The position numbers were made by a program, and so were the translations under genes. A model generated the notes under the pieces. The model saw only the letters and a program-made list of their open reading frames with translations. It searched no databases and was not told the origin of the DNA. From a virus (taxonomy: Duplodnaviria; Caudoviricetes), in IMG/VR virus record IMGVR_UViG_3300033552_000006, positions 1-58,643 of that record: a stretch of DNA of 58,643 nt. The stretch is one strand, 5' to 3'. Positions 2,587 to 55,179 of the stretch are shown here, in pieces. Within the stretch, counting starts at the first letter, position 1. Each line of letters opens with the position of its first letter.

Positions 2587-2617
2587 TTTGTAGGTACGTA
2601 ATTATTGCGTATGTTTG
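2587..2617 (+). promoter_or_regulatory. Bacteroidota primary-sigma promoter
   Basis: TTTG (2587-2590) - 19 nt - TATGTTTG (2610-2617) matches the -33/-7 consensus TTTG-N19-21-TAnnTTTG. Confidence 0.7.
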
Positions 2618-2740
2618 TCAAGATGATTGTTAAGGGTTAATAATTTAATTTAACGGAGAGGGATCGAAGTATTTTATTTTTTAAGCCCTTTGCGGTTATT
2701 TTTTTTTAAAGCGGCGATATCGCCATAATTAAAAATTGGT

Positions 2741-2950: not shown

Positions 2951-3150
2951 AAATAGAGTATGTAAAGCCGGGAAGCGATAAGATGACTGTTGTTTCTGGG
3001 AGTATGAAAAGCGTTAATAGGGCTATGGACGGGGTTTCAGCAAATATCATGAATATTACATTTGCGACTAATAGTGTTGAGGATGTGGACAAGGCTATAA
3101 AATTTTTGAATAGTATTAAAATTTGTCATGTATTAACAAAATCTTTATAA
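2947..3150 (+). CDS. hypothetical protein
   Basis: Translationally coupled ORF. Confidence 0.55.
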   Translation: MKIEYVKPGSDKMTVVSGSMKSVNRAMDGVSANIMNITFATNSVEDVDKAIKFLNSIKICHVLTKSL

Positions 3151-4616: not shown

Positions 4617-6138
4617 TCAAACTAAGATTATGGAAGGCATCAACTTACTGGCTGATGCAGTGCAAAGCACATTAGGTCCTTCGGGAAAAACAGTTATTAT
4701 TGCCGAGGAAGGTGACGAACCGTTTGCCACCAAAGATGGGGTAACGGTAGCCAATTGTATGAACAGTCGCGATCCTGTTATAAATGTGGGAATGCAGCTT
4801 ATCAAGAAAGTGGCAAGCAAAATGGATTTTGATTCAGGGGATGGTACCACAACGGTAACGGTATTGTGCCGGGCACTCATAAAACATGGGCTGGAACTTA
4901 AAGCCAAAAAAGGCTTTGACGAACATGCTTTCAAAGAAACTATTTACACTTGTTTGGGCAGAACCATTTATGAATTGAAAAAACATTCAAGAGAAGTTTT
5001 ATTGGCAGATATCGGAAAAGTAGCTCTTACCTCCACCAACAACGACAAGTTCCTTGCCAACTTATTTCAAGAAGCTTTCAATAACTCTGGAACAGAAGGA
5101 TACATCAACATCGTGGAAAGCGTTACCGGTAAAAGCTACGTCGATATCATAAAGGGTTATGTAGTGGAATTGGGGTATATGGAAAGAGCATACGCCAATA
5201 ATCCACTGACAGGTTTCTTTGAAGCACCCAAATGTTCAGTGCTTGTTTATGACAATGAATTCACAAGCAAAAAAGAAATCATGGCGCTGATACGCGTAAA
5301 CAATGGTTATACAAATCCTTTGCCTATATTAATTATTGCAAAAGACTATTCCAAAGAAGTTCAGGGAATTGTAGAGTTTAACAATATGGACCGAACAGGC
5401 AACAAGATATGTCTGATTAAGAACCCGTTGCGTAACGACGAGTACAATACCATGTTGCAAGATATTGCACAATACACAAATGCAGAAGTGGCAAGTTCTT
5501 ATAGCGAGTACGATACGGAACTTGGAATAGCTTATGACTTGGTAGTCAAACAAGGCTATACAGTAATGGGAGAAATTCCAGAAACCGAAAGAAAAGTATT
5601 AGACACTTATCTTTCCTTGTTAGAACAAGCTTCGGAGCAAGAAAAATCAGGACATTATTCAGCCATGATGCTCAAAAGAGTTGCCCGTATGCGCCATGGA
5701 GTAACCACTTTTTACGTTGGTGGTGATTCTGATATTGAACTCAAGGAAAAAAAACACCGAGTAGAGGATGCTTATAAATCCTGTAAGGCAGCATTGAAAG
5801 ACAATGTAATTATGGGCGGTGGGCAAAGCTTGGTTCTGATCACCTTAAATTACAATCCAAAAGAGGAATATGAAATGGCTTTTTATAAAGCTATGTTTGA
5901 ACCTTTCAATATTATTCTAAAAAACTCGCTTCACAAAGACGATGATCGTGTAAATGTTTCCAAGCAAATTAAATGGGGATATGGTTACAATGCCAAGACC
6001 AGGGAATATGAAGACTTGCATGAATCAGGGATTATAGATCCGGTGAGTGTTCAAATCAATGCTCTTACTAATGCAGTAAGTATTGCCCTTACCGTTTTAT
6101 CAACAGAATGTTTAATCGTGGAGACACCAAATCAATAA
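4588..6138 (+). CDS. groEL: phage chaperonin GroEL
   Basis: TLGPSG, TKDGVTVA, GDGTTT, ELKEKKHRVEDA, GIIDP motifs; no GGM tail. Confidence 0.95.
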   Translation: MSKQIYLSDSQTKIMEGINLLADAVQSTLGPSGKTVIIAEEGDEPFATKDGVTVANCMNSRDPVINVGMQLIKKVASKMDFDSGDGTTTVTVLCRALIKHGLELKAKKGFDEHAFKETIYTCLGRTIYELKKHSREVLLADIGKVALTSTNNDKFLANLFQEAFNNSGTEGYINIVESVTGKSYVDIIKGYVVELGYMERAYANNPLTGFFEAPKCSVLVYDNEFTSKKEIMALIRVNNGYTNPLPILIIAKDYSKEVQGIVEFNNMDRTGNKICLIKNPLRNDEYNTMLQDIAQYTNAEVASSYSEYDTELGIAYDLVVKQGYTVMGEIPETERKVLDTYLSLLEQASEQEKSGHYSAMMLKRVARMRHGVTTFYVGGDSDIELKEKKHRVEDAYKSCKAALKDNVIMGGGQSLVLITLNYNPKEEYEMAFYKAMFEPFNIILKNSLHKDDDRVNVSKQIKWGYGYNAKTREYEDLHESGIIDPVSVQINALTNAVSIALTVLSTECLIVETPNQ

Positions 6139-39515: not shown

Positions 39516-42500
39516 ATGGGAAAGATTTTTAAAAGCAACAATTTAGATCCTGCGGGAGTAAACATTCCTACTGCAGAACAAAATCAAGCAGAGTTCTTAG
39601 ATATGCAAAGCAAAAGTCAAGAAAATATTGACATGCAAACGGCTGACTATTTAGCTAAAGAAAAAAAGAAACAGTACGGTGATATCAATGCCGCTACACA
39701 AGATTCAGGAATGGCCGGCATGCAAGAAGAATTTCAAGGCATGGCTGGAACTGAAACTGCAATACAGAATCAAGACCAAAGCCAATTACCTAAAGCCTAC
39801 AATATGGATGATATCCATAGAAACTGGCTTGGGCAAACAGGAGAGTCTTTTATGAAAGGACTTGGCGATACTGTTATTGGCAGTACAGGTGATTTACTAA
39901 ATTTTGCTACTGCTCCGCTAGATGGTTTTACTATGCTTGAAGGAAATATACTTGGTAATGCTTTAAGAGAATATGGAGATGAAATGGCTGACGAGCATAC
40001 TACATTTCTTAAAAAGAAATTAGAAGGTCAAGAACTTACTTGGGGTTCTTTAGCTGATCCTGATTTTTGGAGTACTAACGTAGCTGAAATGATTCCAATG
40101 GCTTTGGAGTTTATGGTAACAGGTTTTGGTGCGGGAGCCGCTGCAAAAAAAGGAGCTGGATTTTTTGTTAAATCATTAGGCACTGAAGCTAGATTATTAA
40201 AAGCCATGCAAACATCAACTGATGTTGCAGAAGGTTTGGCCGGAAGCGGTAGACTTGTAAAAGATATCATAGGAACTGGTAAAGGAATTAAAGACTTTAG
40301 TCTTGCCAAGTATCTTACCCGAAATGTTGATGGCGTTCTTGAAATGTCAAAGTTCAGTAAAGAATTTGCGGGCGCTGCTGGTGCGGGTGCTGCAAACAAT
40401 TTACTTACAGGTGCAGTAAATGGAATGGAAGCTCATAGAGAAATGGTTTCTCAAAATGAACAAGATATAGCCAAAGGAATAGCACCTCGCTATACAGAAG
40501 ACGAAATGGCACAAGTTGCTACAGGAACTTTTACAAGAAATATGCTTTATGCTCCAATGGATATGATTTCTTGGGGATTGAGTTATGGCAAAGCCGGAGA
40601 AAAATTAATGGCGGGAATGTCTAAAAAAATGGTTTTAAAACCTGCTGAAGAAATAGCCAAACAAACTGCCGCTTCTTTTACTAAATCTACTTTCCCATTA
40701 GTAAAAGGAATTATGGGTGCTGCAGGTCATGGATTCATGGAAGGAGCAGAAGAAACTTTCCAAGAAACTTATGAAGAATGGGCAAGGCTAAAATCCAGAG
40801 AAAAACACTTAGGAGAAAAAGCTCCTGACTATTGGGATTTTTATTTCTCTAAAGAAAACAAAAATACTAAAGTAGCTTCTTTTGCTATGGGCGCTCTTAT
40901 GGGTGGAGCAATGAATCTTAACTTCAAAAAAGCTGCCGAAGAAGGATTAAATTACAGAGATCGTTCCGAAGTATTAAGAGCTACTATTGATGTTAATGAC
41001 AAAGGTGGACAAAATGCTAAAACGTATCACATCAGAAATCAAATGATTGACTTATTGCATGATGATAAGGTTGAGCATTTTGATGCTTTTATGTCATCGT
41101 TATTAGCTAAAGGAACTATTGATGAAGAACAGCTTAATGAATACACCAAAGAATTTCAAGAAGTAAGTGTTGATTATAATGCTGCTGCTAATTTGAACGT
41201 AGCCGGTAAATATGCTTTGGCTGAGAACACCATTAAAGCAAAATCATTGTCACGATTTATCGAAAATGAAAAAGCTTCTTATGCTGAAAAGCAAGCTTCC
41301 CTTAAAGAAAATTTTGATGGAGAAGAAAACAACGCTGTCTTGCACCAGGAACAACTTCAAGAATTGGCTGATTTAGAAAATACAATGGCCGAGGCAGAAA
41401 ATCCTATTACAGCTGAAAAAATAAAGCACATCAAAGAAAGTATTGCTGAGCATAAAAATTCTCCAGTACAAGCGCAGTATGCTAAATTAGAATCGGAACA
41501 CAACCAACAAGTGGAAATGTTGAGTTTAAATTTAGCAATGGCTAATGCTAATAGAATGAATCTTATTTCAGGAAAATCGGCAACGCCTTTGAATATTAAA
41601 TTCTGGAAAAATTCAAATGGAGTAGAACAAGTTTTTATTACTGAGGATTCTAAAGAATATTACGAAGAAGGATTTAGTTATTCCAATGAAAATAAAAACG
41701 ATCCTAATTTAAAAGATAAAAAATCAATGTCTGAGGGTGACTTGCAATCGTTCCAAGCAGAAGGTGATGTTCTTGCTGGATTGTCTGATAAACAATACGA
41801 ACAATTTGTCAACATGAGTTCTGAAGAAGTTTTTGAAAGTGCTAAACGCAACCACGAAAACATGCTTAAAAACGCAAGCAAAGAAACTATTAAAATTTAT
41901 GACAAGATAATGGGCAAAGGCAAAGAGCTTGTCGGAAAAGTTAAAGCTAAACTAGATGCTAATGGCAACCCTGTTCTTGATGAAGAAGGGAATCCTGTTA
42001 TGGAGCCGGACACTGCAGAAACAACTCCTACTTCAACAAAACCTATCAATCCTAATATTTCTCCAAGTGGTGAAGAAAATGCTTATGAAAAAGCATATCA
42101 AGAAGGTGGTTTAGAAACTGCTAAGGAAGCTGAGGCTAGAAAAATTGCTGAAGAAGAAGCTAAGTTTAAAGAAAAACAAAGTACAGAGCCTAAAACTAAA
42201 GAACAACAAATTGAAGATTTTTTCAAAGGAATGAACGCTGATGAAGGTGCTCAAAAAAAAATGAAAGAATATGCAGAACGTTTGGCCAACGGTGAATCAG
42301 AAGAAAAAGTTTTTGAAGGAATAAATCTTGATGGAGCTATAGCAAATGGTACCAGAGAATATTTAAATATAATTCAAGATTCTCAGATTGATGAAAATTT
42401 AAATCAAAAACCGACTTACAGTGTTGTTAAAGACAAAGTTACCGGAAAGTATTCTTTAGTTGATACGGTAACTGGCGAGCCGCACCCTAACGGTAAAACA

Positions 42501-45500
42501 TACACTACTTCTATATCTGCTAAAAAAGATTTGGGTAACGCTTCTGTTGTTGGCACTGTTGTCAAAGGTGCTTGGACAGGAACCAAAGGCGCTGTTAAAT
42601 TAGCGGGCAAAGGGTTAAAGTATGCTGCTAAAACAGGTCGTGGAATTGCCAAAGAAGGTGGCGAAATTATAGAAAAAACTCAGGAAGAAATTCAAAATGC
42701 ATTAGACCAAAAAGCTAAAGAGAAAGCCAATACGCAAAACGTCAATCAGGATGCCATGCGTAAGAAAATCATGCATGATGCTTATTACAGTTCCTCTGCC
42801 AGAAACATTGCCAACAATCCTAATGCTGCTGTTTCTAAACAAGAATTAGATGCTTACCTTGATACTAAAATAGCGGCGTTCAAATGGGGGCCAAGAGCCA
42901 TCGAAGAACAGTACACTATCAATAGAATCTTAAAAGCAAAAGGTATTGATGTTAATGTTGTAATTGCCCAAAATCTATTTTCTGCAGTAGGCACCCATGC
43001 AGTAGGTTATGCATTGGCAAGTACTATTTATATTGATGAAAAGGTTTGGAATCAACCAGCTGTATTTATGCATGAAATGTCACATATTCATTACCAACTT
43101 ACTCAAAATACTCCGGCTACAAAAGCAGTAGTAGAATTTGCTAGAAGGGATGCTAAATTGGTGGAAAAAGTAGAACGTTTATATGCTACTAAAGTAATCT
43201 ATGAATCAGAAGGTAAAAAATTTACCCTTGAAACATTCTTAAATGATATTGGCGGACAAGAAGCTTATCAAGACGTAATAGATGAACATGGAATGGAAGC
43301 GTTTTTAGCAGATATTGGTATCACCAAAGCGCCTGATTCAGAACAGTCAGTAATCAATGAGGAATTGTTCACTCATACTCTTGAAGGCCCAATGGCTAAA
43401 AATTTCAACCAAGCCTTAGAACCTATTCGTGAAAGAGGTAGAAAAATAGAATCTAAAAAATGGTGGAGTTGGTTAAAAGGAAACCAAGTTACTTTTGAAC
43501 CATTTGCTTTGGATGTTGCTGAAAAATTAAACAAAGGAGTTGCAATAAACCGTAACGATTTGTTTGAACACGTTATGAGTAAGTTTTCAGAAGAAGTGGC
43601 TAAAAAACCAAAGTCAGCGTTTACTGCTTCCGGGCATGCTTCTATTGTGGACATGCAACAAGCTAATGCTATAGCAAACCATCAAAGAATTACTGCTTCT
43701 AAAATTGAGCAAAGACAATCTTACGATGCCGAAGAAGCTAAGAAAAAAAACAGAGCAACTACCTATGCTAGACTGGCTCAGAAAATCAAAGCGGATATTA
43801 ACATCAGCATGAAAGATATGTCCGAGTTGGAACGTAGAAACGAAACAGAATTCCAATTGGAAGAACTGGAAAACTCTATGTTGGAAGAAGGGGCTTTCGA
43901 TGATTACGAATTAGCCAAGTCTGTTCAGTTTAGGGGAGCAACTAGAATACTGAACAGCTTTACCAAAAGTTTGAATTATGTGAAACGCCAACGTTTTGCA
44001 GCAGCCGATGGTATCGCTTCTGATTTTAATGAAGATGATTTGTTAGATAGAGACGCGTTAATTTCAGAGTTCTATAGTCTTGCCTTTGAACACAAAGGAA
44101 ACACTAATGGATTTATAGATTCTATCGAAACCAGTCAAGTGGAAGAAGTGTATCAGTTCAATCAGTACATGGAGAAAATGCACCCGGGAGAGAAACATAT
44201 GTACTTGAGTTCTATGGCTCACGTAATGGCAAACACTCAAACCATAAGTGCTATCAAAAGTGTAGTTACCGCTGATGGGAAATGGGAAACAGTCAATGCT
44301 CTATCCGAAACAGAAAACCATAAGGTTCAAAACCACATGGCTAAAATGGAACGTGATGAAAATTTACATTACAACCATAAAACGGACGAAAATGCATCGC
44401 TTCCAGTTCAGAATTATCAGTACTTTATTGATGCCTACAATGACATCAAATCAGGTAATCAAAATGATGAAAGCTATTTAGGAATCCTAAGAATGATTGC
44501 TCCAACAGGAACTAAGTTTTCGGCCTTGATCAACAACCAAACTATCAACATGAAAGGGCACAATATCAATGTGAGAGTTCTTATTGATAAAATGGTAAAA
44601 TCCAAAGTGGCCGAAAATGAAAACGGTAAAATTGCAGTGTACAAACTAAAACCGTTCATTGAAGCCATTGTAGACAGTAACCGTAAATTCACTTCGTATT
44701 CTGTAATCCAGAATGCTGAGGGGAACATGGAACCAAGCAAGATTACCAACAATCATTTATTGTCAGAGATTAATGCTATGAATGAGTTTCTTGTCAAAGA
44801 CGCAAAAGGCAATTTCCCGACCTTTAAATCATTTAAGGAAAGATATTCCCATTTGTCTGACGCTTCCAACAGAACGCATGAAAACCCTGTTTTAAGAGGT
44901 ATCTACGATAATGCTAAAAGCAATACTGCTAGACCTTCTTTAACTCAGTATGCTGGACTTACGCACTTGCAGAACGGAGCTAACTCTTTGTATAAAAACT
45001 CAACTGACTTTGCTCAGACTATTGAGGATTTTATGTTGTTCAGCAAATATACTTCTAAGAACTATGTTCAGACTTTGAGTGCTATGGCTGACAGTCCAAG
45101 AAAGTTCATGATGACAGTTGAACGTATCTTGCACAAAGATGCTTTCAACTCTAAAAATGAATTGACTTTAAAAGGAAAACGTTTGCTTGAATCCTCTTGG
45201 AAAATTTATGATAAATCCAATGAAAATCTTTCTGGAAAAAAGAAAGCAATGACTATGCAAACTCAAGGAGAATTCTTTACCAAGTTTGATCAGTCCGTAA
45301 GCAAGGAAATTGCTCGTTGGAATGAGAATGCTAAAGACCTGATAGCTAACAAAACAATTGAGCCTACTTATTTTACTAACGGAAAGCTTAATGCCAACGG
45401 AGAAAATAAGATACGTGAATTTGTATTGAACCAAACCGTTAATGGAATGGCATTGGCTGAAATATTCAATCCGGGTATTCCTTTTAATGATATCGTAAAA

Positions 45501-48500
45501 CGTAACAAAGGAAACAGTTCTCCTGTAATCACTTTCGGAAACAAGAATCTTAAAATGGAAGCTATTCCAATTGACGATACTAAATCTGAACTTGGTTCTA
45601 ACTCTGGTATGTATATGACTCAAGCTATGGCTCAAAAAATAATTGATGCCGGACTTGGAGTCTTTGATTTGAATCATGGATTAAAATTATTGAACTACCA
45701 TGTAGAGAGAGATAATCCAAATTTTAAAGGAGTATCTGCTTACTTCAAAGGGTACACAACTATAATCTCTGAGGAGACTTTAATCACTGAACCTGGACTA
45801 AAAGGTATTTACCAATTACTTACGGAACGTGAAGAAAAGTACAACGGAGAATATTTCGATAAGTATGGAGTTAGTCCTTCTTTAGATATTACCAATGGGG
45901 AAGAAAACTACATCAACTATGCCGTTCCGTATTCTGCCATTAAAAGCGATTTGTTTTCTGCTGAGCAACAACAATCATTATCAGGTATAACTTATGAAGC
46001 ACTCGAAGCCAATTTATCAGACCACCAAAACAGATTGCAAGGAGACAAAGAAACTGTTACTGAATACGATAAAATGCATGCTGCTTTGGATGCTCTTTAT
46101 TATGGCGATAATGGTTTCATGGGCTTATCTACCAATAATTTTGGGCCACAACAAATAATGGATAAACAAACTGAAGAAGCGGTAACGCCTGTTCAGTTTA
46201 TGTCCTCTGTTATTGTAAACGGAATGGTTGGCAACAACTTAGAAATGGGAGAAGAAATTCAAAAGCTTATCCGTACCGATATGAAGAATAACTTGGACGA
46301 GGTTATCTCTGAATTGGGGAACATGGAACCGGCTAAGTACAAGGCTTTCATCTTAAAGAATTTGGATTTGGAGAATATGGACCAAACCCAAAGGCTTATG
46401 ATTGAAGAATCCCTTACTAATCTTAACCATCCGGCTGTATCTGACTTTATAACTAATACATTAGCCAATAGATTAAAACAAGCCGGAAACAAGCTTAAAA
46501 CAAATGGTAGTGTTGCACAACAAAAACCATCATTACATTTTAAATACGGTAGAGGTAAGAACTATTCTATTAATGGAAGAACAGGACTTGCTGGATTTAC
46601 AGACAGACACAATGCCGATGGTAGTGTAGGAACTATGGTTAATGAAATCGTATTGCCTAAGCACATGAAAGATAAAGTTATCTTCAGACAGTACTTGGAC
46701 GAAAACGATCCTCAAGCTATGCGTATCATAAAAGCAAATGCAGACTTAATGGGTAAGTTTACCAAAGCTACTACCGAAAATGATGCTCAAGCTAAATCTG
46801 ATGTAATGAAACAAGTGGCTTTAATGATTGCACGTTCCAGACATGGACAAGCAAGAACAAAGGGTTCTTACGGGCATGATGTAAATGATTATATCGGAGA
46901 GTTTTACGAAGATGGCGTTGCTAAAGGTTGGTTTGTTCGCGGAGAAAGTGTGATGGGTACTCGTATTCCTTCGCATGGACCAGCATCAACAGGAGTCTTT
47001 GAAGCAGTAGATTATTTGGAAGGAGAAGGAAACCAAACTATTGTATCAGAAGAATTTTCAGATATAGCCGGTTCCGATTACGATGGAGATTCCTTGTTTA
47101 TTCAACGCAAAGGAAAAGAGACGCCAAACTTCAACCAAGCTTTGGAAAAAACAGTTGACTTATGGACTTCTCCGGGAATGAAAAACCAAATCAAAGCTAA
47201 GATTGAATTTGAAAAAGAAGTTGAATCAGTTATCGGTGATCAGAAAGTAGAAAAGCAAATGCCTATGTCTCCGGCTTACCACCGAGAAGCGTACAACAAT
47301 ACCATGATTTCTAAAAGAAATATTGGTATCATTTTCAACACCCACCGTATTGCAAATTACTTGGCGGCTTACAATGTAAAATTGAACAGCCCTATTAATA
47401 TCGATGGAACCAGAGTTGATGCTTTTAGCGATAAGGAAGTAGGACAAGAGAGTAGAAACAATCAATCTGCTATGCTTGCCAATATCATTTTGGATAATAC
47501 CAAATGGGGTTTCGCTGATGCTTTGGGATTAAATGACCAAACTATCAACCAGTACTCTTTACTTACTAACATGGGATTCTCTTTAAAGCAAATCAATGGT
47601 ATCATGAACTCAAAAGCGGTTAAGGTTTGGAACAAGCACCAAGCCAATAACCAAAACCCGTTCGCTACCAAAATGAAAAATGCTGATGTAAAGAAAGCCA
47701 TACTAACGGAATTAGGTATAGACGATTCTAAAGTGAAAGCAATCAGTATTAACACTAGTGCCGATAAGATAAATTCTAAAGAGCAAATGAAGCACATTAT
47801 TCAAATGATGGAGACATTGGAAACCATGAACGCTGATATTTTACATATCTCTAAAATTATGGCAGGCCACAAAGGAATTGAAAACGATCCGTTTGTATTG
47901 GAAAAACAATTGTCGGCATTTGATCAAGTAATCAATTCTGATAAAAACAATGCTTTGCTTACGTTCCCTAAAGCGTTCAGAGATAATCCGGACATTAGTG
48001 CTTATCACGATAATGCTTCTCGCATATTGGAGATTATGAAAAAAGCCAATACCATTTACAATAAATCAACTTCTGAGTTGATTGCTGTACTGGACGAGAA
48101 AATAGGTTTTGATAAAAAACTTAGCAAAAGCCAACAGGAACGTGCTTCAGATATCATCAAAAGATTTACTACTTCCAGAATGTTAGGGTTAAACAACCTT
48201 ACTTCTACGGAGAAGCTTAAAGTAAAAAGACAATTGTTTAAAAACATTCAGGCTTATGAAAAAATGTTGCAAGAAACTAAGCTTCCGGGCAACAGAGGAC
48301 TTACGCAATTGGACAAAAGCGTATTGTTCAACAGAGCATTGAATATCAATATCAAACATGCACCTGGACAAAAAAACAAAACTGAAGGAGCTAAAGTTTT
48401 TGACGAAAAAAGCTATGTGTCAGCAAATCCAAGATTCTTTAATGAAAGCATTACAGAAGAAGATAGAATTGCTGTACAACAAGAGTACAAAGCATTGCCT

Positions 48501-51500
48501 CAAAATATCAAAGATGGATTGCTTACTTTGGATTTAATGAAAAATGGATTAACAGGAAAATTATCTTTGTCAAGTATTTTTGATGAAGGTACTAACCATG
48601 ATATTTCTACTTATGCTGCACATGATAGCAAAACCAAGAACAATCCTATAGATAAAAAAGTGATGGATAAATTAGAAAATCTTATTATCTCTAATGAATT
48701 CAAAACTAGCAAAAGCATTCAAGACGTTAGTGGTACTGTATCTTTTAAAGCGGGAGATAACTTAGTCTCTTACATCAGAACCAACAACAAAATTGTATCT
48801 GATGGATTGCAAAGAGGTAATGGAATGATATTCAAAGTAAATGGCAAGCCCTATATCTACGAAGGTATTTCCAAAGAAGAAAAGGACATGATCCGCCAAG
48901 GAAATCGCGATGCTCAAACACAACAACAAGCTTTTACTACTGCTTTGTTCGGTAAAATAAAACCATACAAAGTTTTTGAAGGAGAGGATATCAATCTGGA
49001 AGCTATTTCTATTCCTGATATTGATGGAAGCAGACCCACTTACAAAAGTAAAAAATCAGAGCAGTCCACTAAAGCGGGCCACATGACTGAAGCTACTGTT
49101 AAGTTTGAATCTACTATAAAAAAAAAAGCTAACGTAGGTAACGCTTCACTTATTGATTACCATAACTACAATGACGTTGCTCCCTTAAATCAAAGGGAGT
49201 TTAACGTTGTTATGGAATACGACCAAACCATTGACGACGAGCAAAAAGAATTAGTTTATAAAACCTATCTCGACGAAAAGAAAGAAGCCAATGACTTAAT
49301 GGCTACCCACAATCAAGAAACTTTTTCCAAAATGACTGATGATAATTTGAGCAAAGCCTATAGCAAATTTGCCCAAAAAGATATGTATGCCTATTCTGTT
49401 ATTACTACACCGCTTATCATGGAACTAGCGAGTCGTATGGGCGTGGAGCAAAGTGCCTTAACAGAACAGTTTGAAGATGGCAAGGATATTAGTCTTATGG
49501 ACAGTTGGCTAAACAACAACAACATCTCCTCCAATCATCCCGTTACCCAAAACCTTGTAAAGAAGCTTGGAGAAGAATACAAAAAATTCGTATTGGAAAG
49601 AGGGAAATATATTAAGAGTATCAATACGGCTACCGATGCACTTTACCAAGAGAAATTTGGGCTTAGCAAAAACAAATATGTTCGTATGGGGCAAAGAGTA
49701 GTACAGTCTTTGGTGAACAATAGAATTGAAGTTTATGAGAAGCTATACGGAAATTTGATAGAGAGGGAAGAAATTATTGATGCCAATGGAACCACAAAGA
49801 AAACTTTGAAGTTTAAAAGTGAAGATACTATAAAAGCTTTGCACAAATCAGGTAAAATCAGTCAGGCTGAAATGGACTTTTATACTGTATTTAGAAAAAC
49901 CACTAATCACTTAAAACAATTTGATGGAAACGATAAAACCCGTAAGGATTATATACCACATACTGCTATGGGTAACTTTGAACAGTTCGCCAATAGAGGT
50001 TTGTTAGGATTAATGGTTAATAGCAAGGGAATTGACAGTGTAATTGAGGACGTAAAAGTATATACAGATATTGGTGGCAAAAAAGAATTAATATCGTTTA
50101 GAGACGCCAAAAATCATTACAATGCTTTGGCTTATTCCAAACAACAAACGCCTAAAGATTTATTGAATTTTGAGAAGTTGAAACGTACTGCTAAAAAATT
50201 GCAAAAAACAGGAAAGAACGAAGATGGTTCTCGTTTGATTTATAGCAATATGCAAAATGAGACTTTGCTTGGAATGAGTCCATTGAGTAGGTTTGCAAGT
50301 TCTCGTTCTAATACTGCCGAAATAATGCCCTCAATGGATTTAAATAAAGCATTAGTGGAATACGTCAACGCAAGTATGTTTACTAATGGAAATGAAAGCT
50401 TCAAAGGGTTCAAAGCTATGATGCCAATGATTGATGGAGTGATGGCTTACAATGAAAAAAACGGATACCAAAATGCGTACAAGTATGTAAAAGAAGTGGT
50501 AAAAGAAGGGTTCATTATGAAAAAAGACCAAATCACTTTCAGCAAAAATACTGATGCTGTAATCAATGGCTTGGTTAAAAGCAATACGATGTATGCTTTG
50601 GGATATAAGGGTATGCTTATAGGGAAAGGGATATATGCCATTGGTAACTTAGCCGTTGGTAAGTACATGAACATAAAAAGGGAAGGTGGAAAGTCTTGGG
50701 CTGTTGGAGAGGCTCGCTATTGGGGAGTGGACAAAGGCATCAGCTTAGATACTTTGGATAGACGTAGGAGAGCAAAAAACATACTTTCCAATTTAGGGTA
50801 TATGGAAGCTGACTTCTACGATGATGTAGATATTGAAGCTAAATCAGGTATCGACAATGTATTTACACAAATGGCTTTACTGCCAATGTCGGTGACTGAA
50901 AATTGGATTCAAAAAAGTCATATGCTTGGAATGCTTACCGATGAAGAGTTTGACAAGTTTGATGAAAAAGGACAATACAAAACGGGGGAAACACAAATTC
51001 AAATGGAGCGTGTTCAGAAACTTGAAGAGCGAGTTAAGAACTCACATGGTAAGGGGTTTAGTCCTACAGACCAAAGTAGAATCCATAGGTATGCAGTAGG
51101 TAAAATGTTCATGCAATTTTCAAGACATTTACCTGTACAAATCAGAGAGCGATTTGCTAAAGAGGATATTGATATGAACGGACAAAAATATATCGGTTCA
51201 TTGAGACAAGTGGGTAAAACAGCTGTTGATATCTTCAACAATCGTATGACTCCTGACAAATTTAAAGAGTACTATGCTGACTTGGAACCGCATCAAAAAG
51301 AAGCGTTGCTTGCTGGACTGAGAGGTATGGCACTTATGACTACTCTTGGAATGATAGCGGGCCATTCTACTGATGCAAGTCAAATGACTTCGGGAACTGA
51401 TGCCTCTAGTGTAGCCAGTGGGGTTATGAGTGATGCAAACATTCACTTTGACTTAGACAGGCTTGGACTTAAAACGATACCCCCTTCGGTACGTTCTGCT

Positions 51501-51554
51501 ATGAGTGTGCTAAAAATGATAACACATGGTGGTCAGACTGATGCTGGTAAGTAA
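39516..51554 (+). CDS. virion RNA polymerase polyprotein (zincin domain + two-barrel RNAP)
   Basis: TRIPSHG...AGSDYDGDSL catalytic loop (DYDGD at 47076-47090, aa 2521-2525); HEMSH at 43071-43085 with downstream EELF; 4012 aa. Confidence 0.9.
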   Translation: MGKIFKSNNLDPAGVNIPTAEQNQAEFLDMQSKSQENIDMQTADYLAKEKKKQYGDINAATQDSGMAGMQEEFQGMAGTETAIQNQDQSQLPKAYNMDDIHRNWLGQTGESFMKGLGDTVIGSTGDLLNFATAPLDGFTMLEGNILGNALREYGDEMADEHTTFLKKKLEGQELTWGSLADPDFWSTNVAEMIPMALEFMVTGFGAGAAAKKGAGFFVKSLGTEARLLKAMQTSTDVAEGLAGSGRLVKDIIGTGKGIKDFSLAKYLTRNVDGVLEMSKFSKEFAGAAGAGAANNLLTGAVNGMEAHREMVSQNEQDIAKGIAPRYTEDEMAQVATGTFTRNMLYAPMDMISWGLSYGKAGEKLMAGMSKKMVLKPAEEIAKQTAASFTKSTFPLVKGIMGAAGHGFMEGAEETFQETYEEWARLKSREKHLGEKAPDYWDFYFSKENKNTKVASFAMGALMGGAMNLNFKKAAEEGLNYRDRSEVLRATIDVNDKGGQNAKTYHIRNQMIDLLHDDKVEHFDAFMSSLLAKGTIDEEQLNEYTKEFQEVSVDYNAAANLNVAGKYALAENTIKAKSLSRFIENEKASYAEKQASLKENFDGEENNAVLHQEQLQELADLENTMAEAENPITAEKIKHIKESIAEHKNSPVQAQYAKLESEHNQQVEMLSLNLAMANANRMNLISGKSATPLNIKFWKNSNGVEQVFITEDSKEYYEEGFSYSNENKNDPNLKDKKSMSEGDLQSFQAEGDVLAGLSDKQYEQFVNMSSEEVFESAKRNHENMLKNASKETIKIYDKIMGKGKELVGKVKAKLDANGNPVLDEEGNPVMEPDTAETTPTSTKPINPNISPSGEENAYEKAYQEGGLETAKEAEARKIAEEEAKFKEKQSTEPKTKEQQIEDFFKGMNADEGAQKKMKEYAERLANGESEEKVFEGINLDGAIANGTREYLNIIQDSQIDENLNQKPTYSVVKDKVTGKYSLVDTVTGEPHPNGKTYTTSISAKKDLGNASVVGTVVKGAWTGTKGAVKLAGKGLKYAAKTGRGIAKEGGEIIEKTQEEIQNALDQKAKEKANTQNVNQDAMRKKIMHDAYYSSSARNIANNPNAAVSKQELDAYLDTKIAAFKWGPRAIEEQYTINRILKAKGIDVNVVIAQNLFSAVGTHAVGYALASTIYIDEKVWNQPAVFMHEMSHIHYQLTQNTPATKAVVEFARRDAKLVEKVERLYATKVIYESEGKKFTLETFLNDIGGQEAYQDVIDEHGMEAFLADIGITKAPDSEQSVINEELFTHTLEGPMAKNFNQALEPIRERGRKIESKKWWSWLKGNQVTFEPFALDVAEKLNKGVAINRNDLFEHVMSKFSEEVAKKPKSAFTASGHASIVDMQQANAIANHQRITASKIEQRQSYDAEEAKKKNRATTYARLAQKIKADINISMKDMSELERRNETEFQLEELENSMLEEGAFDDYELAKSVQFRGATRILNSFTKSLNYVKRQRFAAADGIASDFNEDDLLDRDALISEFYSLAFEHKGNTNGFIDSIETSQVEEVYQFNQYMEKMHPGEKHMYLSSMAHVMANTQTISAIKSVVTADGKWETVNALSETENHKVQNHMAKMERDENLHYNHKTDENASLPVQNYQYFIDAYNDIKSGNQNDESYLGILRMIAPTGTKFSALINNQTINMKGHNINVRVLIDKMVKSKVAENENGKIAVYKLKPFIEAIVDSNRKFTSYSVIQNAEGNMEPSKITNNHLLSEINAMNEFLVKDAKGNFPTFKSFKERYSHLSDASNRTHENPVLRGIYDNAKSNTARPSLTQYAGLTHLQNGANSLYKNSTDFAQTIEDFMLFSKYTSKNYVQTLSAMADSPRKFMMTVERILHKDAFNSKNELTLKGKRLLESSWKIYDKSNENLSGKKKAMTMQTQGEFFTKFDQSVSKEIARWNENAKDLIANKTIEPTYFTNGKLNANGENKIREFVLNQTVNGMALAEIFNPGIPFNDIVKRNKGNSSPVITFGNKNLKMEAIPIDDTKSELGSNSGMYMTQAMAQKIIDAGLGVFDLNHGLKLLNYHVERDNPNFKGVSAYFKGYTTIISEETLITEPGLKGIYQLLTEREEKYNGEYFDKYGVSPSLDITNGEENYINYAVPYSAIKSDLFSAEQQQSLSGITYEALEANLSDHQNRLQGDKETVTEYDKMHAALDALYYGDNGFMGLSTNNFGPQQIMDKQTEEAVTPVQFMSSVIVNGMVGNNLEMGEEIQKLIRTDMKNNLDEVISELGNMEPAKYKAFILKNLDLENMDQTQRLMIEESLTNLNHPAVSDFITNTLANRLKQAGNKLKTNGSVAQQKPSLHFKYGRGKNYSINGRTGLAGFTDRHNADGSVGTMVNEIVLPKHMKDKVIFRQYLDENDPQAMRIIKANADLMGKFTKATTENDAQAKSDVMKQVALMIARSRHGQARTKGSYGHDVNDYIGEFYEDGVAKGWFVRGESVMGTRIPSHGPASTGVFEAVDYLEGEGNQTIVSEEFSDIAGSDYDGDSLFIQRKGKETPNFNQALEKTVDLWTSPGMKNQIKAKIEFEKEVESVIGDQKVEKQMPMSPAYHREAYNNTMISKRNIGIIFNTHRIANYLAAYNVKLNSPINIDGTRVDAFSDKEVGQESRNNQSAMLANIILDNTKWGFADALGLNDQTINQYSLLTNMGFSLKQINGIMNSKAVKVWNKHQANNQNPFATKMKNADVKKAILTELGIDDSKVKAISINTSADKINSKEQMKHIIQMMETLETMNADILHISKIMAGHKGIENDPFVLEKQLSAFDQVINSDKNNALLTFPKAFRDNPDISAYHDNASRILEIMKKANTIYNKSTSELIAVLDEKIGFDKKLSKSQQERASDIIKRFTTSRMLGLNNLTSTEKLKVKRQLFKNIQAYEKMLQETKLPGNRGLTQLDKSVLFNRALNINIKHAPGQKNKTEGAKVFDEKSYVSANPRFFNESITEEDRIAVQQEYKALPQNIKDGLLTLDLMKNGLTGKLSLSSIFDEGTNHDISTYAAHDSKTKNNPIDKKVMDKLENLIISNEFKTSKSIQDVSGTVSFKAGDNLVSYIRTNNKIVSDGLQRGNGMIFKVNGKPYIYEGISKEEKDMIRQGNRDAQTQQQAFTTALFGKIKPYKVFEGEDINLEAISIPDIDGSRPTYKSKKSEQSTKAGHMTEATVKFESTIKKKANVGNASLIDYHNYNDVAPLNQREFNVVMEYDQTIDDEQKELVYKTYLDEKKEANDLMATHNQETFSKMTDDNLSKAYSKFAQKDMYAYSVITTPLIMELASRMGVEQSALTEQFEDGKDISLMDSWLNNNNISSNHPVTQNLVKKLGEEYKKFVLERGKYIKSINTATDALYQEKFGLSKNKYVRMGQRVVQSLVNNRIEVYEKLYGNLIEREEIIDANGTTKKTLKFKSEDTIKALHKSGKISQAEMDFYTVFRKTTNHLKQFDGNDKTRKDYIPHTAMGNFEQFANRGLLGLMVNSKGIDSVIEDVKVYTDIGGKKELISFRDAKNHYNALAYSKQQTPKDLLNFEKLKRTAKKLQKTGKNEDGSRLIYSNMQNETLLGMSPLSRFASSRSNTAEIMPSMDLNKALVEYVNASMFTNGNESFKGFKAMMPMIDGVMAYNEKNGYQNAYKYVKEVVKEGFIMKKDQITFSKNTDAVINGLVKSNTMYALGYKGMLIGKGIYAIGNLAVGKYMNIKREGGKSWAVGEARYWGVDKGISLDTLDRRRRAKNILSNLGYMEADFYDDVDIEAKSGIDNVFTQMALLPMSVTENWIQKSHMLGMLTDEEFDKFDEKGQYKTGETQIQMERVQKLEERVKNSHGKGFSPTDQSRIHRYAVGKMFMQFSRHLPVQIRERFAKEDIDMNGQKYIGSLRQVGKTAVDIFNNRMTPDKFKEYYADLEPHQKEALLAGLRGMALMTTLGMIAGHSTDASQMTSGTDASSVASGVMSDANIHFDLDRLGLKTIPPSVRSAMSVLKMITHGGQTDAGK

Positions 51555-51559
51555 AAAAG

Positions 51560-51595
51560 AAAAGGCGAGATTCAGTATATGTTTCTCGCCTTTTT
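51560..51595. terminator. bidirectional intrinsic terminator
   Basis: AAAAGGCGAGA...TCTCGCCTTTTT between convergent genes. Confidence 0.85.
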
Positions 51596-51601: not shown

Positions 51602-51883
51602 TTATATCAATATCACTTCAAATGTGTGAAACACTAAAACTCCTCCTGCCATTTGAAAAGTTCCAATGTGTTTTAATTCTGCATTTTCTATTTCAGGTAT
51701 TGGATTCCCTGTTCCAAATATTTTAAAATGTCTGAATACTTTTTTCGCATTTACATCTACCAAAGCCCAAATACAAGGAACGTATCCTTGCATTTGATTT
51801 GTTAGTATTTCTGCTCCTATTGGCATTTCAATAATGTTGTCGTCCATGTTAGGCATTTGGAATTTCCATATTTGTTTTTTCAT
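51602..51883 (-). CDS. conserved small phage protein
   Basis: IWKF...MP.GAEIL..Q...CIWALVD...GTG...IGT.Q...VFH.FE pattern, widespread in phages. Confidence 0.75.
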   Translation of the reverse strand: MKKQIWKFQMPNMDDNIIEMPIGAEILTNQMQGYVPCIWALVDVNAKKVFRHFKIFGTGNPIPEIENAELKHIGTFQMAGGVLVFHTFEVILI

Positions 51884-51913: not shown

Positions 51914-51967
51914 TTATAACTTGCGCTAGTAGCCATTGAAAAAACGGCGACTAGCTGACAGTTATGC
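51914..51967 (+). other. attC-like site 1 (54 bp)
   Basis: TTATAAC...GCTAGT/ACTAGC stem...GTTATGC. Confidence 0.7.
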
Positions 51968-51972
51968 AACAG

Positions 51973-52356
51973 CTACCGTATATTGCGTATAATTCGATTT
52001 CGTAATTTTCTTTTTTGTGTTGCTTTTAATTGTTTATTATTAAATTGAAATTTTTCTTCTAAATCAAATTTTCCAAAAGAGTATTTTAAACGAAAATAAA
52101 TTTGGTAGATACACTCATTAAAATCATTTTCTTGGTCAAAAGCACCTTTTACCATCACACTTTCCATAAATTCTGATTGCGTTTTTTCTTTAAAACAAAA
52201 ACAACCATCTTTAAAATAAAAATTAAAGTGTTTATAATATTTACCTATTTTATTTCTTAATGCAATTTTAATTTTCGACAACAAAGCCGATTGCATAACA
52301 CTCGTTTGCACGCATTGCGGGTTTTGTGGTTCAATCATATTTTCGTTTCGCATCAT
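51973..52356 (-). CDS. cassette ORF, hypothetical; 5' end lies inside attC-like site 2
   Basis: ORF track; bounded by GTTATGCAA and TTGCATAAC. Confidence 0.65.
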   Translation of the reverse strand: MMRNENMIEPQNPQCVQTSVMQSALLSKIKIALRNKIGKYYKHFNFYFKDGCFCFKEKTQSEFMESVMVKGAFDQENDFNECIYQIYFRLKYSFGKFDLEEKFQFNNKQLKATQKRKLRNRIIRNIR

Positions 52357-52425
52357 ATTTATTTTAAGTTAGAAATTTTATTTTTACGAAGCCCGCAACG
52401 ACAAGCAAGCGAGATAACGTTATCA
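52293..52425 (+). other. attC-like site 2 (133 bp)
   Basis: GCATAAC, CTCGTTTGC/GCAAGCGAG and TTGCGGG/CCCGCAA stems, GTTATCA. Confidence 0.75.
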
Positions 52426-52444
52426 GGAATACTACGTTTCCGTT

Positions 52445-52669
52445 TCATAAGAAACCTATTCCTCTGTTGTAATCGCTAGACATTTCGTTTAAATACTTTT
52501 GTTGTTCATTTTCTATGATGCCTAATTCATAAGCTTCAATTAAAGTTAATTCTCTTTCATAAGTCATTCCTTGAAATTTATATTCTAAACTTATTGATTC
52601 CCCTATTGTAAAAACTTTTGCTTTCACATTAGTTTTTCCGTCAATGTGTTTAATTGTTATTGTTTTCAT
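52445..52669 (-). CDS. cassette ORF, hypothetical
   Basis: ORF track 52445-52756; MKTITIK start at 52669 preferred (A-rich leader). Confidence 0.6.
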   Translation of the reverse strand: MKTITIKHIDGKTNVKAKVFTIGESISLEYKFQGMTYERELTLIEAYELGIIENEQQKYLNEMSSDYNRGIGFL

Positions 52670-52700
52670 AACATATTTAGTTTTAATTAATTCGTACTCC

Positions 52701-52779
52701 TGATAACAAGTGTTTGTAAATACCAGCCGAATTAAGGTTAGTGTGTAGGCTGGCATCTACAAGCACCGATACGTTATCT
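52701..52779 (+). other. attC-like site 3 (79 bp)
   Basis: TGATAAC, GTGTTTGTA/TACAAGCAC and CCAGCC/GGCTGG stems, GTTATCT. Confidence 0.75.
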
Positions 52780-53106
52780 TCAATTGCTACTATTAGGGTA
52801 ATCATTGCTTTTTTTTTCTAGATATTCTTTTTCTTCGTATTTTAAATATACTTTTTTAATTGTTCCGTTTGATTCAAATGTGTTATAAAAAAGCCTTTTA
52901 ATCCGTACCTTATTTATTCCGATACTGTCTTTTTTTTCTTCTTTATTTATCGCAAAACCTTTTTGAACCCATTTACCTGTATAATAATAATTGTATGCGG
53001 TTTCGGTTGTGTCTTTTATTTCCAGAATCAAATTAACATTTTTTGTTTGGCTAAAAATAGCATTTGATAATAATAGTAATATAATTGGCAATTTGATATT
53101 TATCAT
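52780..53106 (-). CDS. cassette ORF, secreted protein with a signal peptide
   Basis: MINIKLPIILLLLSNAIFS|Q. Confidence 0.65.
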   Translation of the reverse strand: MINIKLPIILLLLSNAIFSQTKNVNLILEIKDTTETAYNYYYTGKWVQKGFAINKEEKKDSIGINKVRIKRLFYNTFESNGTIKKVYLKYEEKEYLEKKSNDYPNSSN

Positions 53107-53134
53107 AATTTTTAGTTTAAAACCCGCAAATAGA

Positions 53135-53271
53135 ATATAACAGCACCTATACTCAATTTGTCAATCGGTGATTGTTTGTGAGCAATTAGTGTTACACGGT
53201 TTACACTCTTTTTTGTCCAGTTTTTACCGTGATAAACTGGACAAAATGCGTATAGCAGCGAGACGTTATGT
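53135..53271 (+). other. attC-like site 4 (137 bp)
   Basis: ATATAAC, CTATAC/GTATAG and TTTGTC/GACAAA stems, GTTATGT overlapping the dnaG stop codon. Confidence 0.7.
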
Positions 53272-55179
53272 ATTAAGTTCTTTTTTAATTCTAATCATAA
53301 GGTCAATGTAATGCTTTACATTCTGCTTGTTAGGTTTGTCCTTCTTGCTTTCTTCCTCTATCAGACATTCTATGTAAACTGTCTTATAGAAAAGCAAATT
53401 CTGTCGAATAGCATTTTGAAGTATCAAATGAAGCTCTGGAACTTCTCCCGGCTTTATAATTCCACCTGTCGCAGTCAAAACATTCTTATTACCGTTCAGT
53501 TCTTCATTGCGCATTTCATTTGCTAATAAAAACGTCTCTTCGCTTAAAACGTTACGCAAAGAATTAAAGTCTCTTAAATCAACGGATTTGGCTTTGTCAT
53601 AAATATAAGAAAAGGTAAGATTTAAAAAGTGAATGCCATCGTTCTCCAATTCATAAATGACTTTATCGAGTACTGTTCGCTTGGCATCAAAGTTTACTTC
53701 CTTGTACGTTTGTTGCCCTATCATTCCGGCTTTGTCCAGTAGCACCTCTTTGAAGGTAAGTTCTAAAGAACCATAAGCTAATATGTACTGCAATATCTTG
53801 CGTTCACATTGCTTCTGTATGAAGTTCTTGCTTGAAACAAACTGCCCGTAAAAGCTTTGTGGTGCTGCCACATTAAAGACTACTTGCTCTGCTGTGTATT
53901 TCTTAAGTGTAGTATGTAGCATTTCAATATTTATCTTAGAGATATTGGCACATTGGCTGAGGTATATTTCCCTTTGTATGGCACTTGGCATCTTGGCAAT
54001 ACTGCTTACTACATCTTCAATAGCTTCTCCTCTGAGGGCTATATTATCTGCTGCCATACGAAGCAAGTGCTGAAGCTTAAACAGTACAAAGTCCACTGCA
54101 TTCTCGGAAATATAATTCTCTATCTGCTCTTGAGTCCTTGCTTTGGCAAAATCATCAGGATCCTGTCCATCGGGAAGTATCAAAACTTTTACATTCATTC
54201 CCTCTGGAAGCAATACGTCAATTCCTCGAAGTGCTGCTTTTAGTCCGGGCAAATCGCCATCAAACATTACCACTACATTTTTAGTGAAACGTTTAATCAG
54301 TTTTACCTGTTCAGTAGTCAATGCAGTTCCAGCGGAAGCTACCGTATTTTCTACTCCTTTTTGGTGGAACATAATTACATCAAGATACCCTTCAGTAAGC
54401 AAACATTGGTTCTTTTCGGATATAGATTTCTTGGCTTCGTATATGCCATACAACGCTTCGGACTTGTTGTATATAATACTGTCCGAACTGTTTACGTACT
54501 TCGCCATGTTATCATCCTTCACCATTATCCTACCGCCAAAGCCAATGATGTTTCCCGCTATATTTTTGATAGGAAACATTACCCTGTTTCGGAACTTGTC
54601 GTATAGCTTATTCTTTTCAGGTAAGTAACCCAGTACCGAAGCTTCCACTGCCAATTTCCAATTGAATCCGTTATTGATTAACTGATTGGTTAATCCTGAT
54701 ACGGTTGCTGGTCCAAAGCCTATCTCAAACTTCTGTATGGTTTCTGCGGTAAGTTGCCTTTCTCCATAAACATAGTTCAGCACTTCTTGAAAGTAATTCA
54801 GATTAGCCTTGTAATATTCATTGGCTGTCTTGGTTATTATAAACAAGGACTCTTTGTGTTGAGCTAAAAGCTTTTCTTCGTTAGTACTTTCAGTTTCTAA
54901 AAATTCAATGCTATACAGCTTACACAAATGCCTTATCGCTTCGGGGTAATTCATCATTTCCTTTTCCATGATAAAAGTAGCTATACCACCACCTTTGCTG
55001 GAACTGAAACATTTGAATATCCCTTTAGTTGGCGAAACCATAAAGGAAGGGGAACGCTCGTTGGTAAAAGGGGAGAAGCCTTTGTAATTGCTTCCCGCCC
55101 GTTTTAAGTCCACGTATTTCCCGATTACCTCTACAATGTCCAAAGCGAATACTTTGTCAATCGTTTCTTGTAGTATCAA
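53266..55179 (-). CDS. dnaG: DNA primase, bacterial DnaG type
   Basis: SPF..ERSPSF.V zinc-finger region, FRNRVMFPI, GFGGR, KYVNS, EGYLDV, GTALT, FDGD..G, DPDD. Confidence 0.95.
   Translation of the reverse strand: MILQETIDKVFALDIVEVIGKYVDLKRAGSNYKGFSPFTNERSPSFMVSPTKGIFKCFSSSKGGGIATFIMEKEMMNYPEAIRHLCKLYSIEFLETESTNEEKLLAQHKESLFIITKTANEYYKANLNYFQEVLNYVYGERQLTAETIQKFEIGFGPATVSGLTNQLINNGFNWKLAVEASVLGYLPEKNKLYDKFRNRVMFPIKNIAGNIIGFGGRIMVKDDNMAKYVNSSDSIIYNKSEALYGIYEAKKSISEKNQCLLTEGYLDVIMFHQKGVENTVASAGTALTTEQVKLIKRFTKNVVVMFDGDLPGLKAALRGIDVLLPEGMNVKVLILPDGQDPDDFAKARTQEQIENYISENAVDFVLFKLQHLLRMAADNIALRGEAIEDVVSSIAKMPSAIQREIYLSQCANISKINIEMLHTTLKKYTAEQVVFNVAAPQSFYGQFVSSKNFIQKQCERKILQYILAYGSLELTFKEVLLDKAGMIGQQTYKEVNFDAKRTVLDKVIYELENDGIHFLNLTFSYIYDKAKSVDLRDFNSLRNVLSEETFLLANEMRNEELNGNKNVLTATGGIIKPGEVPELHLILQNAIRQNLLFYKTVYIECLIEEESKKDKPNKQNVKHYIDLMIRIKKELNT

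Follow-up and report, generated by a model that had tools for sequence, protein, structure and literature searches.

The 58,643-nucleotide (nt) viral record IMGVR_UViG_3300033552_000006 of the IMG/VR database, here called the window in the sense of this whole stretch of DNA, carries at positions 51916-53269 a row of hairpin-forming palindromes separated by small genes. An initial annotation had read this row as an integron-like array of attC-like sites and gene cassettes inside a crAss-like phage. The locus thus raises the question of whether such a row is a set of mobile cassettes and which enzyme could move them. Our answer is that it is probably a genuine integron-type cassette array, for which the phage borrows a host recombinase of the Xer/IntI clade, and we give this reading a probability of about 0.78.

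Four imperfect palindromes, with ATAAC at the start and GTTAT at the end, bound three open reading frames (ORFs) on the minus strand. The sites (W1 to W4), the cassettes (A to C) and the ORFs are as follows.

51916-51965, plus strand: site W1, 50 nt, with ATAAC at 51916-51920 and GTTAT at 51961-51965; left end of the array and weakest member of the site family
52295-52423, plus strand: site W2, long class, 129 nt
52703-52777, plus strand: site W3, short class, 75 nt
53137-53269, plus strand: site W4, long class, 133 nt; right end of the array
51962-52419, plus strand: cassette A, from the TT of the W1 right core to the G of the W2 right core; ORF A and site W2
52420-52773, plus strand: cassette B; ORF B and site W3
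52774-53265, plus strand: cassette C; ORF C and site W4
51973-52356, minus strand: ORF A, 127 amino acids; a shorter form, 51973-52296, of about 108 amino acids, begins at an inner ATG
52445-52669, minus strand: ORF B, 74 amino acids, the form common to its homologs
52780-53106, minus strand: ORF C, 108 amino acids, with a hydrophobic N-terminus

The core-to-core lengths of 50, 129, 75 and 133 nt agree with the palindromes of 54, 133, 79 and 137 bp first described, a few flanking bases explaining the difference, and a single short ORF lies in each interval, as had also been stated, on the minus strand in each case. The limits of the window cassettes, with crossover at G^TTA, were taken from comparisons among phages of the genus Unahavirus that are described below.

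The right core of each site was complementary to the left core of the following site rather than to that of its own. With pairing scored as the extension containing at most one mismatch, which gave 9, 14 and 9 nt, the matches were 9/9 (W1-W2), 13/14 (W2-W3) and 8/9 (W3-W4), whereas the two cores within W1, W2, W3 and W4 paired over only 5, 5, 6 and 7 nt. The paired ends are GTTATGCAA / TTGCATAAC for cassette A, GTTATCAGGAATAC / GTACTCCTGATAAC for cassette B and GTTATCTTC / GAATATAAC for cassette C, and the right cores themselves read GTTATGC, GTTATCA, GTTATCT and GTTATGT. No complementary partner was found nearby for the left-core extension of W1, or within the window for the right-core extension of W4. 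As a control, every GTTA...TAAC pair with a spacing of 250-520 nt in the rest of the window, on either strand, was scored (532 pairs); an extension of at least 9 was reached by 8 of them (1.5%) and the maximum was 10. The complementarity claimed in the initial annotation was therefore reproduced in full and lies beyond chance.

The sites are a conserved, covarying family of structures and not random AT-rich palindromes. For their alignment, 21 long-class phage sites were gathered with a simple hairpin scanner, after pattern and protein searches had added further viral contigs with such sites. Read from the 5' side, a site opens with TAAC and 1-2 nt that stay unpaired, continues with a stem of ~9 bp and then has a small loop and a semi-conserved stem (TTGYGG/CCRCAA); these are followed by a variable loop of ~70 nt, the returning arms, a bulge of 5-6 nt ending in C, and GTTA. 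Paired cells made up 80.6% compared with 64.3% in shuffles, and the covariation score was 0.386 compared with 0.141 for shuffled alignments (reached by 0 of 500 shuffles) and at most 0.133 with partners slid, figures that are somewhat flattered because the structure came from the same alignment. Changes on both sides were seen at all nine pairs of the main stem. A T.G pair is conserved on the plus strand of this stem in 13 of the 21 sites, and in the core extensions a wobble often lies on the strand opposite to it.

A covariance model, R1, was built from the phage sites, with W2 in the training set and W3 and W4 outside it. The two untrained sites were matched with 34.4 bits (W4; E = 1.3e-4 over the whole window) and 30.9 bits (W3; E = 2.3e-5, filters off); the 116 bits obtained for W2 are those of a training member. 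Nothing further was significant elsewhere in the 58.6 kb, and every match was on the plus strand. A covariance model had been proposed as a check on the sites, and this one recovers W4 and W3 independently, with stems that covary. Folding of both strands, the other structural check proposed, gave a less decided result: the z-scores against shuffles were negative on the plus strand (−0.8 to −2.7) and on the minus strand (−1.4 to −3.8), but only moderately better than shuffles. The minus-strand folds of the four window sites were slightly more stable than the plus-strand folds, and the closing stem of W1 is 6 bp on either strand. A hand-written hairpin scanner, which gave 2-4 chance hits per shuffled genome, was dropped in favour of the covariance model and was used only to gather candidate sites within obvious arrays.

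Cassette turnover was seen in other phages that carry such sites. A blastn search against isolate phages returned 12 records, all of Flavobacterium psychrophilum siphoviruses of the genus Unahavirus. W2 (52306-52402) is 90.8% identical to intergenic DNA of six Flavobacterium phage records, and W3 (52659-52777) is 80.5% identical to six records of phages 6H, 1H and 23T; an identity of 91% between W2 and sites of unrelated phages argues for recent exchange. Phages 2A and 6H are nearly identical at the array, with an extra unit of two ORFs in 2A where 6H reads aaacGTTAGGGAAC. This unit starts with GTTACCTGC and ends with GCAGGTAAC, a site and ...aaccG, after which the shared GTTAGGGAAC cassette follows; relative to 6H, the insertion is bounded by ...aaacGTTA and ...aaccGTTA. 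Ten genomes were then compared (2A, 6H, 23T, 1H, FPSV-D15, FPSV-F7, FPSV-D35, FPSV-D17 and two proviruses). The blocks that were inserted, missing or permuted were 98-100% identical across the ten, and those of FPSV-D15 were reordered in provirus G004. The junctions of these blocks, at positions 1673, about 2160, 3059, 3589, 3985 and 5117 of the FPSV-D15 locus, each lie at the C^GTTA right core of a site, which places the crossover at the right core on the strand matched by the model. A cassette is thus TTA, gene, left core, site body and G. That the ORFs vary as units with boundaries at GTT cores, as had been predicted, was borne out by these six junctions, which belong to Unahavirus phages and not to the window's own lineage. 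The wider proposal, that the phage gains and shuffles accessory genes as mobile cassettes, is supported with the same restriction, since the turnover was seen in other phages and not in its own line.

In the Unahavirus phages, a gene for an RNA ligase (Pfam PF09414) forms a block between two right cores, which is placed differently in FPSV-D15 (about 2164-3059) and provirus G004 (further coordinates are 1119-2012 in locus L001 and 248-1099 in locus L002). With different positions and right cores at both ends, this enzyme gene of ~900 bp behaves as a cassette.

A further phage array lies on contig G001, a virulent-type phage of 52 kb rated 100% complete, which has 11 same-strand sites within 4.4 kb and in which no tyrosine recombinase was found. 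Cross-site pairing of 9-13 nt was present in 8 of its 10 adjacent site pairs. ORF B has nine homologs with 66-83% identity, of which two were seen in context, in the arrays of G001 and of a second contig (G002), with cassette ends and neighbours that differ. The search for this family gave none in genome contigs and only G001 in metagenome contigs. Near-identical 14-nt ends (GTTA[T/G]CAGGAATAC and GTACTCCTG[A/C]TAAC; window positions 52419-52432 and 52694-52707) enclose unrelated ORFs in the window and in G001 (locus L021, about 1595-1905), and the ends of cassette A were found again in G001, also around unrelated ORFs. The motif ACCTGC at the end of a phage 2A cassette is present as well in a chromosomal array, that of genome G128. 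Cassette end sequences seem to be a limited repertoire, independent of the cargo.

Arrays of the same site family were found in bacterial chromosomes. A 22-base motif from the W2 loop matched one metagenome-assembled genome of the Bacteroidota (G009) and gave entry to its family, in which 66 of 151 genomes had R1 matches at E ≤ 0.001. The chromosomal matches form same-strand arrays of up to about 70 kb, with sites of about 140 nt. The array of G128 comprises 46 same-strand matches from about 469.4 to 539.9 kb, with zero matches at E ≤ 0.5 in 80 kb of its flanks; that of G075 is at least 68 kb long and reaches a contig end. Next-site pairing of at least 8 nt was found for 28 of the 45 neighbours in G128, compared with 5/46 for own cores and 3/44 for sites i and i+2. 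At the model positions AAC is present in 46/46 and GTT in 45/46 of the G128 sites. The chromosomal cores include GTTACCT and GTTGTGC; conservation of the core is limited to AAC/GTT, usually TAAC/GTTA in phages. The threshold of TIGR02249, the integron integrase model, was passed by none of 401 genomes of this Bacteroidota family. A single cassette of phage polarity with a W2-type site (101 bits) was seen on contig C25 of G009 (locus L042, 1-700), which also carries two tyrosine recombinase genes and may therefore be a prophage or a mis-binned viral contig.

The chromosomal arrays point to a candidate enzyme. The initial annotation had seen no integrase nearby, and a search of the 58.6-kb record with PF00589 (tyrosine recombinase) found no match anywhere in the window. 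In G128, a 376-residue tyrosine recombinase is encoded directly upstream of the array, after polA and on the strand of the sites (contig C14, 460001-469400); the annotation places polA, the recombinase and genes for ribosomal proteins next to the array. An ORF of 264 amino acids with no family match lies between the recombinase gene and the first site. At E ≤ 1e-60 the recombinase has homologs in 73 of the 151 genomes, some 30 of which are full-length with ≥55% identity. At 10 further loci, picked because the recombinase gene and an R1 match lie on one contig and thus not at random, the array began downstream of the gene and co-oriented with it in 10/10 cases (11/11 with G128), and 59 of the 59 R1 matches were downstream of the gene and on its strand.

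The recombinase has a SAM-like core-binding domain (PF13495) and a catalytic domain (PF00589), and the catalytic R, K, HxxR, H and Y are invariant in all nine aligned sequences. Its best NCBIfam model is XerA-type (223 bits, cut-off 220); on TIGR02249 it scored 191.9, below the cut-off of 265. It aligned to VchIntIA, an integron integrase of solved structure, in two pieces, with 18 residues compared with 59 in IntI at the position of the integron-specific insert. The predicted structure (pLDDT 79.7) was closest in fold to VchIntIA (2a3v; E = 1e-17), followed by archaeal XerA (5hxy/4a8e). There is also a conserved extra N-terminal domain of about 105 residues, predicted as beta-beta-alpha-beta-beta-alpha-beta, for which a Pfam search gave no match. 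The recombinase is thus nearest to IntI and XerA, within the Xer/IntI clade, but lacks the IntI-specific insert and is not a canonical IntI. The suggestion that a host-encoded or distant phage-encoded tyrosine recombinase serves the array is supported by the linkage of this recombinase to the same site family in chromosomes, but the enzyme is not the canonical one.

Phage and chromosomal cassettes differ in the direction of their genes. The ORFs are antisense to the sites in the phages (3/3 in the window, 13/13 in G001, and likewise in the Unahavirus arrays), whereas in the chromosomes they are sense (70/78 in G128 and 75/80 in G075). Along the coding strand of a phage cassette, the site thus precedes the gene. 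The phage cassettes would form a pool separate from the host cassettes, handled by the same recombination chemistry. The loop of W2-type sites (within 52306-52402 in the window) contains a 32-nt stretch that is invariant in 8/8 aligned copies. On the coding strand this stretch reads ATGATG..., and the peptide that it encodes, MMRNENMIEPQNPQC, continues in frame into unrelated ORFs downstream of it, both in the window and in contigs G003, G005, G007 and G008; in phage 2A the frame reaches a stop. The longer form of ORF A begins in the W2 loop, whereas its inner start, at 52296, belongs to the core (GTT ATG). A W2-type site may provide the cassette gene that comes after it, whichever that is, with a start codon or an expression signal.

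The element works like an integron cassette array, of which it is a non-canonical member. By analogy with integrons, each cassette would once have been a circle composed of a left core (...TAAC), the stems and a right core (GTTA...). Insertion by a tyrosine recombinase would open the circle between G and TTA, so that the part of the right core after the G would come to lie at the cassette start and pair with the left core at the cassette end. With no tyrosine recombinase in the window, the catalyst is likely to be a host enzyme, probably the recombinase of about 376 residues of the Xer/IntI clade that heads the chromosomal arrays, and its substrates would be hairpins extruded when phage DNA is single-stranded in the course of replication. 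The inserted cassettes would be read by the phage operon, with the site upstream of the gene on the coding strand.

The array is placed at the 3' end of the replication operon of the phage, between the following genes.

51602-51883, minus strand: DUF7352 protein (Pfam PF24043, E = 1.2e-24; PHROG 3848), the final gene of the minus-strand replication operon
53266-55179, minus strand: DnaG-type primase (Pfam DNAG_N, Zn_ribbon_DnaG, Toprim, DnaB_bind)

The primase stop codon is overlapped by the right core of W4. The G+C fractions of cassettes A, B and C are 0.277, 0.305 and 0.285, compared with 0.357 for the window and 0.381 for the adjoining primase gene. ORF A matched neither a Pfam nor a PHROG family; ORF C matched only itself in the database, with no Pfam or PHROG family and with Atlas matches all below 0.9. 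The window is a phage record (large terminase, portal and tail proteins are encoded) rated 74% complete. Its designation as crAss-like is loosely supported: the best matches of the large terminase are crAss-like phages, but at just 24-28% identity, and by this protein the phage appears distantly crAss-like. The window also encodes a GroEL-like chaperonin of 516 residues (4588-6138, plus strand; PHROG 5725, E = 2e-102) and a single ORF of 4012 amino acids (39516-51554, plus strand) with a G+C-rich hairpin 48 bp beyond its end. This hairpin (about 51558-51592), which has runs of A and T beside it, is situated where the structural and replication modules converge and resembles a two-way terminator.

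In integrons, a cassette gene reads towards its own site, with G^TT at the 3' end of the site on the gene strand. The attC sites have the core consensus RYYYAAC / GTTRRRY and a geometry of R box, unpaired central spacer, L box and extrahelical bases. The present arrays share with chromosomal integrons, such as the Vibrio superintegron, the AAC...GTT cores, next-site core pairing, crossover at G^TT, a second stem with sequence-free covariation, the likeness of sites within an array, and tens of cassettes beside a tyrosine recombinase. Their sites differ from canonical attC in the loop that separates the core stem from the second stem, which is asymmetric (5' arm 1-2 nt, 3' arm 5-6 nt), in the further semi-conserved stem (TTGYGG/CCRCAA), and in that the consensus is not kept beyond AAC/GTT. 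Their recombinase differs from that of canonical integrons in being co-oriented with the cassettes, and canonical cassette polarity is found in the chromosomal arrays of the family but not in the phage arrays. The description of the locus as attC-like sites with the integron signature therefore holds for cores, next-site pairing and core breakpoints, but not for consensus, phage gene polarity or the presence of IntI, and the loop geometry also appears to differ.

Clusters of attC sites in phages that lack an integrase have been in the literature since 2023, so that the kind of element is already known. In the part of the report considered here, Qi et al. 2023 (PMC9892861) surveyed 10,705 phage genomes and described 17 clusters of attC sites lacking an integron-integrase (CALINs); these were carried by both virulent and temperate phages and had no integrase nearby, and 5 of 6 tested phage sites were recombined by IntI1. 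The definition of a CALIN used there asks for two or more predicted attC sites no more than 3 kb apart, in a phage with no integron-integrase; the window has no tyrosine recombinase and three or four sites within 1.4 kb, called by R1 and not by the pipeline of that paper. The present arrays are like those CALINs in their hairpin-site arrays, small cassettes and lack of a nearby integrase, whereas permutation between near-identical phages, antisense genes and the link to a non-IntI enzyme are features of the present arrays undescribed in that part of the report. Its main text contains no Flavobacterium, crAss or Bacteroid; the other phages, listed in its supplementary tables, may overlap with those studied here. 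One published CALIN, that of Polaribacter phage P12002L, gave no R1 match at E ≤ 0.1, and the present site family is therefore not tied to the IntI1 assays of PMC9892861. In the text of open-access papers and preprints, we found no cassette arrays in Flavobacterium phages and no Bacteroidota arrays headed by an Xer-like enzyme. The present arrangement appears to be new as a variant of phage attC clusters. Another comparison is with the promoter-stem-loop (PeSL) cassettes of T4-type phages, reportedly described by Arbiol et al. in 2010, whose near-identical repeats are thought to recombine by homology. The two systems are alike in small accessory genes, hyperplastic regions, stem-loop bounds and modular exchange, but the PeSL repeats are near-identical, whereas the present sites vary in sequence and length and have their junctions at a core of 4-6 nt.

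The array could also be a fossil, acquired earlier by site-specific recombination or captured as a fragment of an array and immobile now, its hairpins being left as intergenic structure, for instance in termination or processing. That the window has no recombinase, that its lineage offers no direct evidence of turnover and that W1 is degenerate would all fit. We nevertheless consider a fossil unlikely: the core pairs remain at 9/9, 13/14 and 8/9, W2 is 91% identical to sites of unrelated phages, and the uniformly antisense phage ORFs would be hard to obtain by capturing fragments of host arrays with sense ORFs. Weaker evidence against it comes from the contigs (not reads) of the probable source sample, which branch at W2 and W3, where the assembly breaks; the contig depth of cassette B is 79, compared with 236 and 170 for the flanking contigs, and three contigs keep the ends of cassette B yet skip its ORF (52440-52675). 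A second run of contig data gave short, partial matches only. That the hairpins are ordinary intergenic terminators or regulatory elements, with a cross-site complementarity due to chance in AT-rich DNA, is scarcely credible. The modest folding z-scores and the 2-4 hits per shuffled genome in the crude scan would suit such an origin, but it is countered by the 532-pair control, by the covariation, by the confinement of R1 matches to the array, and by the homologous sites with cassette-level variation in other phages.

If the cassettes are mobile, they might move without a site-specific enzyme, the likeness of the hairpin repeats being enough for homologous or short-homology recombination, as has been put forward for the PeSL repeats. 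One Unahavirus deletion junction does lie in a 15-nt repeat of two site bodies, but there is no long direct repeat among the four window sites (best match 26 nt at 77%), six Unahavirus junctions fall at the C^GTTA core of 4-6 nt and not in longer similar stretches, and homologous exchange would leave unexplained why the ends of a cassette pair with each other; we regard this as quite improbable. About equally improbable is that another enzyme of single-strand hairpins mobilizes the units, for instance an HUH/Y1 transposase like those of IS200/IS605 elements or those associated with REP sequences, and that the recombinase is incidental. HUH/Y1 enzymes recognize hairpins together with an adjacent short cleavage motif, and the linked recombinase lacks the IntI insert. 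Set against this, no such gene was seen beside the inspected arrays, where no dedicated HUH search was made, and in 11/11 loci the array is headed by the recombinase in the same orientation.

Several observations weigh against the reading of the locus as an integron-type array served by a host recombinase. W1 scored only 16.4 bits with R1 (E = 0.013), with a misplaced alignment. Phage 6H has three cassettes absent from 2A and D15, and the deletion junction is the 15-nt repeat ccagccgaaattata common to two site bodies, leaving a hybrid site (about 3380-3530 in L001; about 1730-3110 in L002); since it falls in this body repeat and not in the core, ordinary short-homology recombination also acts on the arrays. 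The W2-type body occurs with differing core extensions on both sides across genomes, which would not be expected if the body strictly moved together with the cassette on its left. The source-sample contigs are compatible with polymorphism of cassette B, but only as a weak hint, and not as evidence of excision, from a sample that is not independent of the window. Gain or loss of the three window cassettes was not directly seen because no close relative was retrieved: searches of viral contigs with the primase and the DUF7352 protein, and of metagenome contigs with the primase, found none, and tblastn matches of the primase to isolate phages were all below 60% identity. As for the enzyme, the 10 further loci were chosen for the association that they display, and it is from co-location that we infer its catalysis of recombination at these sites. 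The insert specific to integron integrases is essential according to the part of PMC8138268 considered here, and a survey of tyrosine recombinases calls it 'not fully conserved' in its integron-like subgroup. With this insert, considered essential for IntI on attC, absent, activity of the recombinase on folded sites is likewise something we infer. The recombinase was found in chromosomes of one Bacteroidota family, and the host of the window phage would have to supply such an enzyme.

Small accessory genes of phages often encode anti-defence or host-takeover functions. If the array is indeed of the integron type and served by a host Xer/IntI-clade recombinase, it would provide a concrete mechanism for the gain, loss and reordering of small accessory genes in phages of Flavobacterium-like hosts, among them cultured isolates of F. 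psychrophilum. Large integron-like arrays would be indicated in a phylum in which complete integrons are rare according to the IntegronFinder 2.0 survey, the part considered here listing for Bacteroidetes proper a single complete integron, in Salinibacter. The original IntegronFinder paper, in the portion considered, treats recombinases near attC sites that do not match the IntI C-terminal profile as non-IntI, and integron-finding pipelines that demand an IntI-specific profile would at best report such systems as clusters of orphan sites. The finding would also bear on how folded-DNA recognition evolved from Xer-type enzymes, since the array recombinase is without the domain treated as integron-defining. 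A more far-reaching reading, which we put forward tentatively and at somewhat less than even odds, is that the Bacteroidota possess an integron class missed by standard definitions, which phages exploit through polarity-inverted cassettes, each with its site and sometimes also its start codon ahead of the gene, shuffled by the host enzyme during infection. Were such a distinct class confirmed, virulent crAss-like phages and temperate siphoviruses would keep a cassette pool of their own, an accessory genome available on demand.

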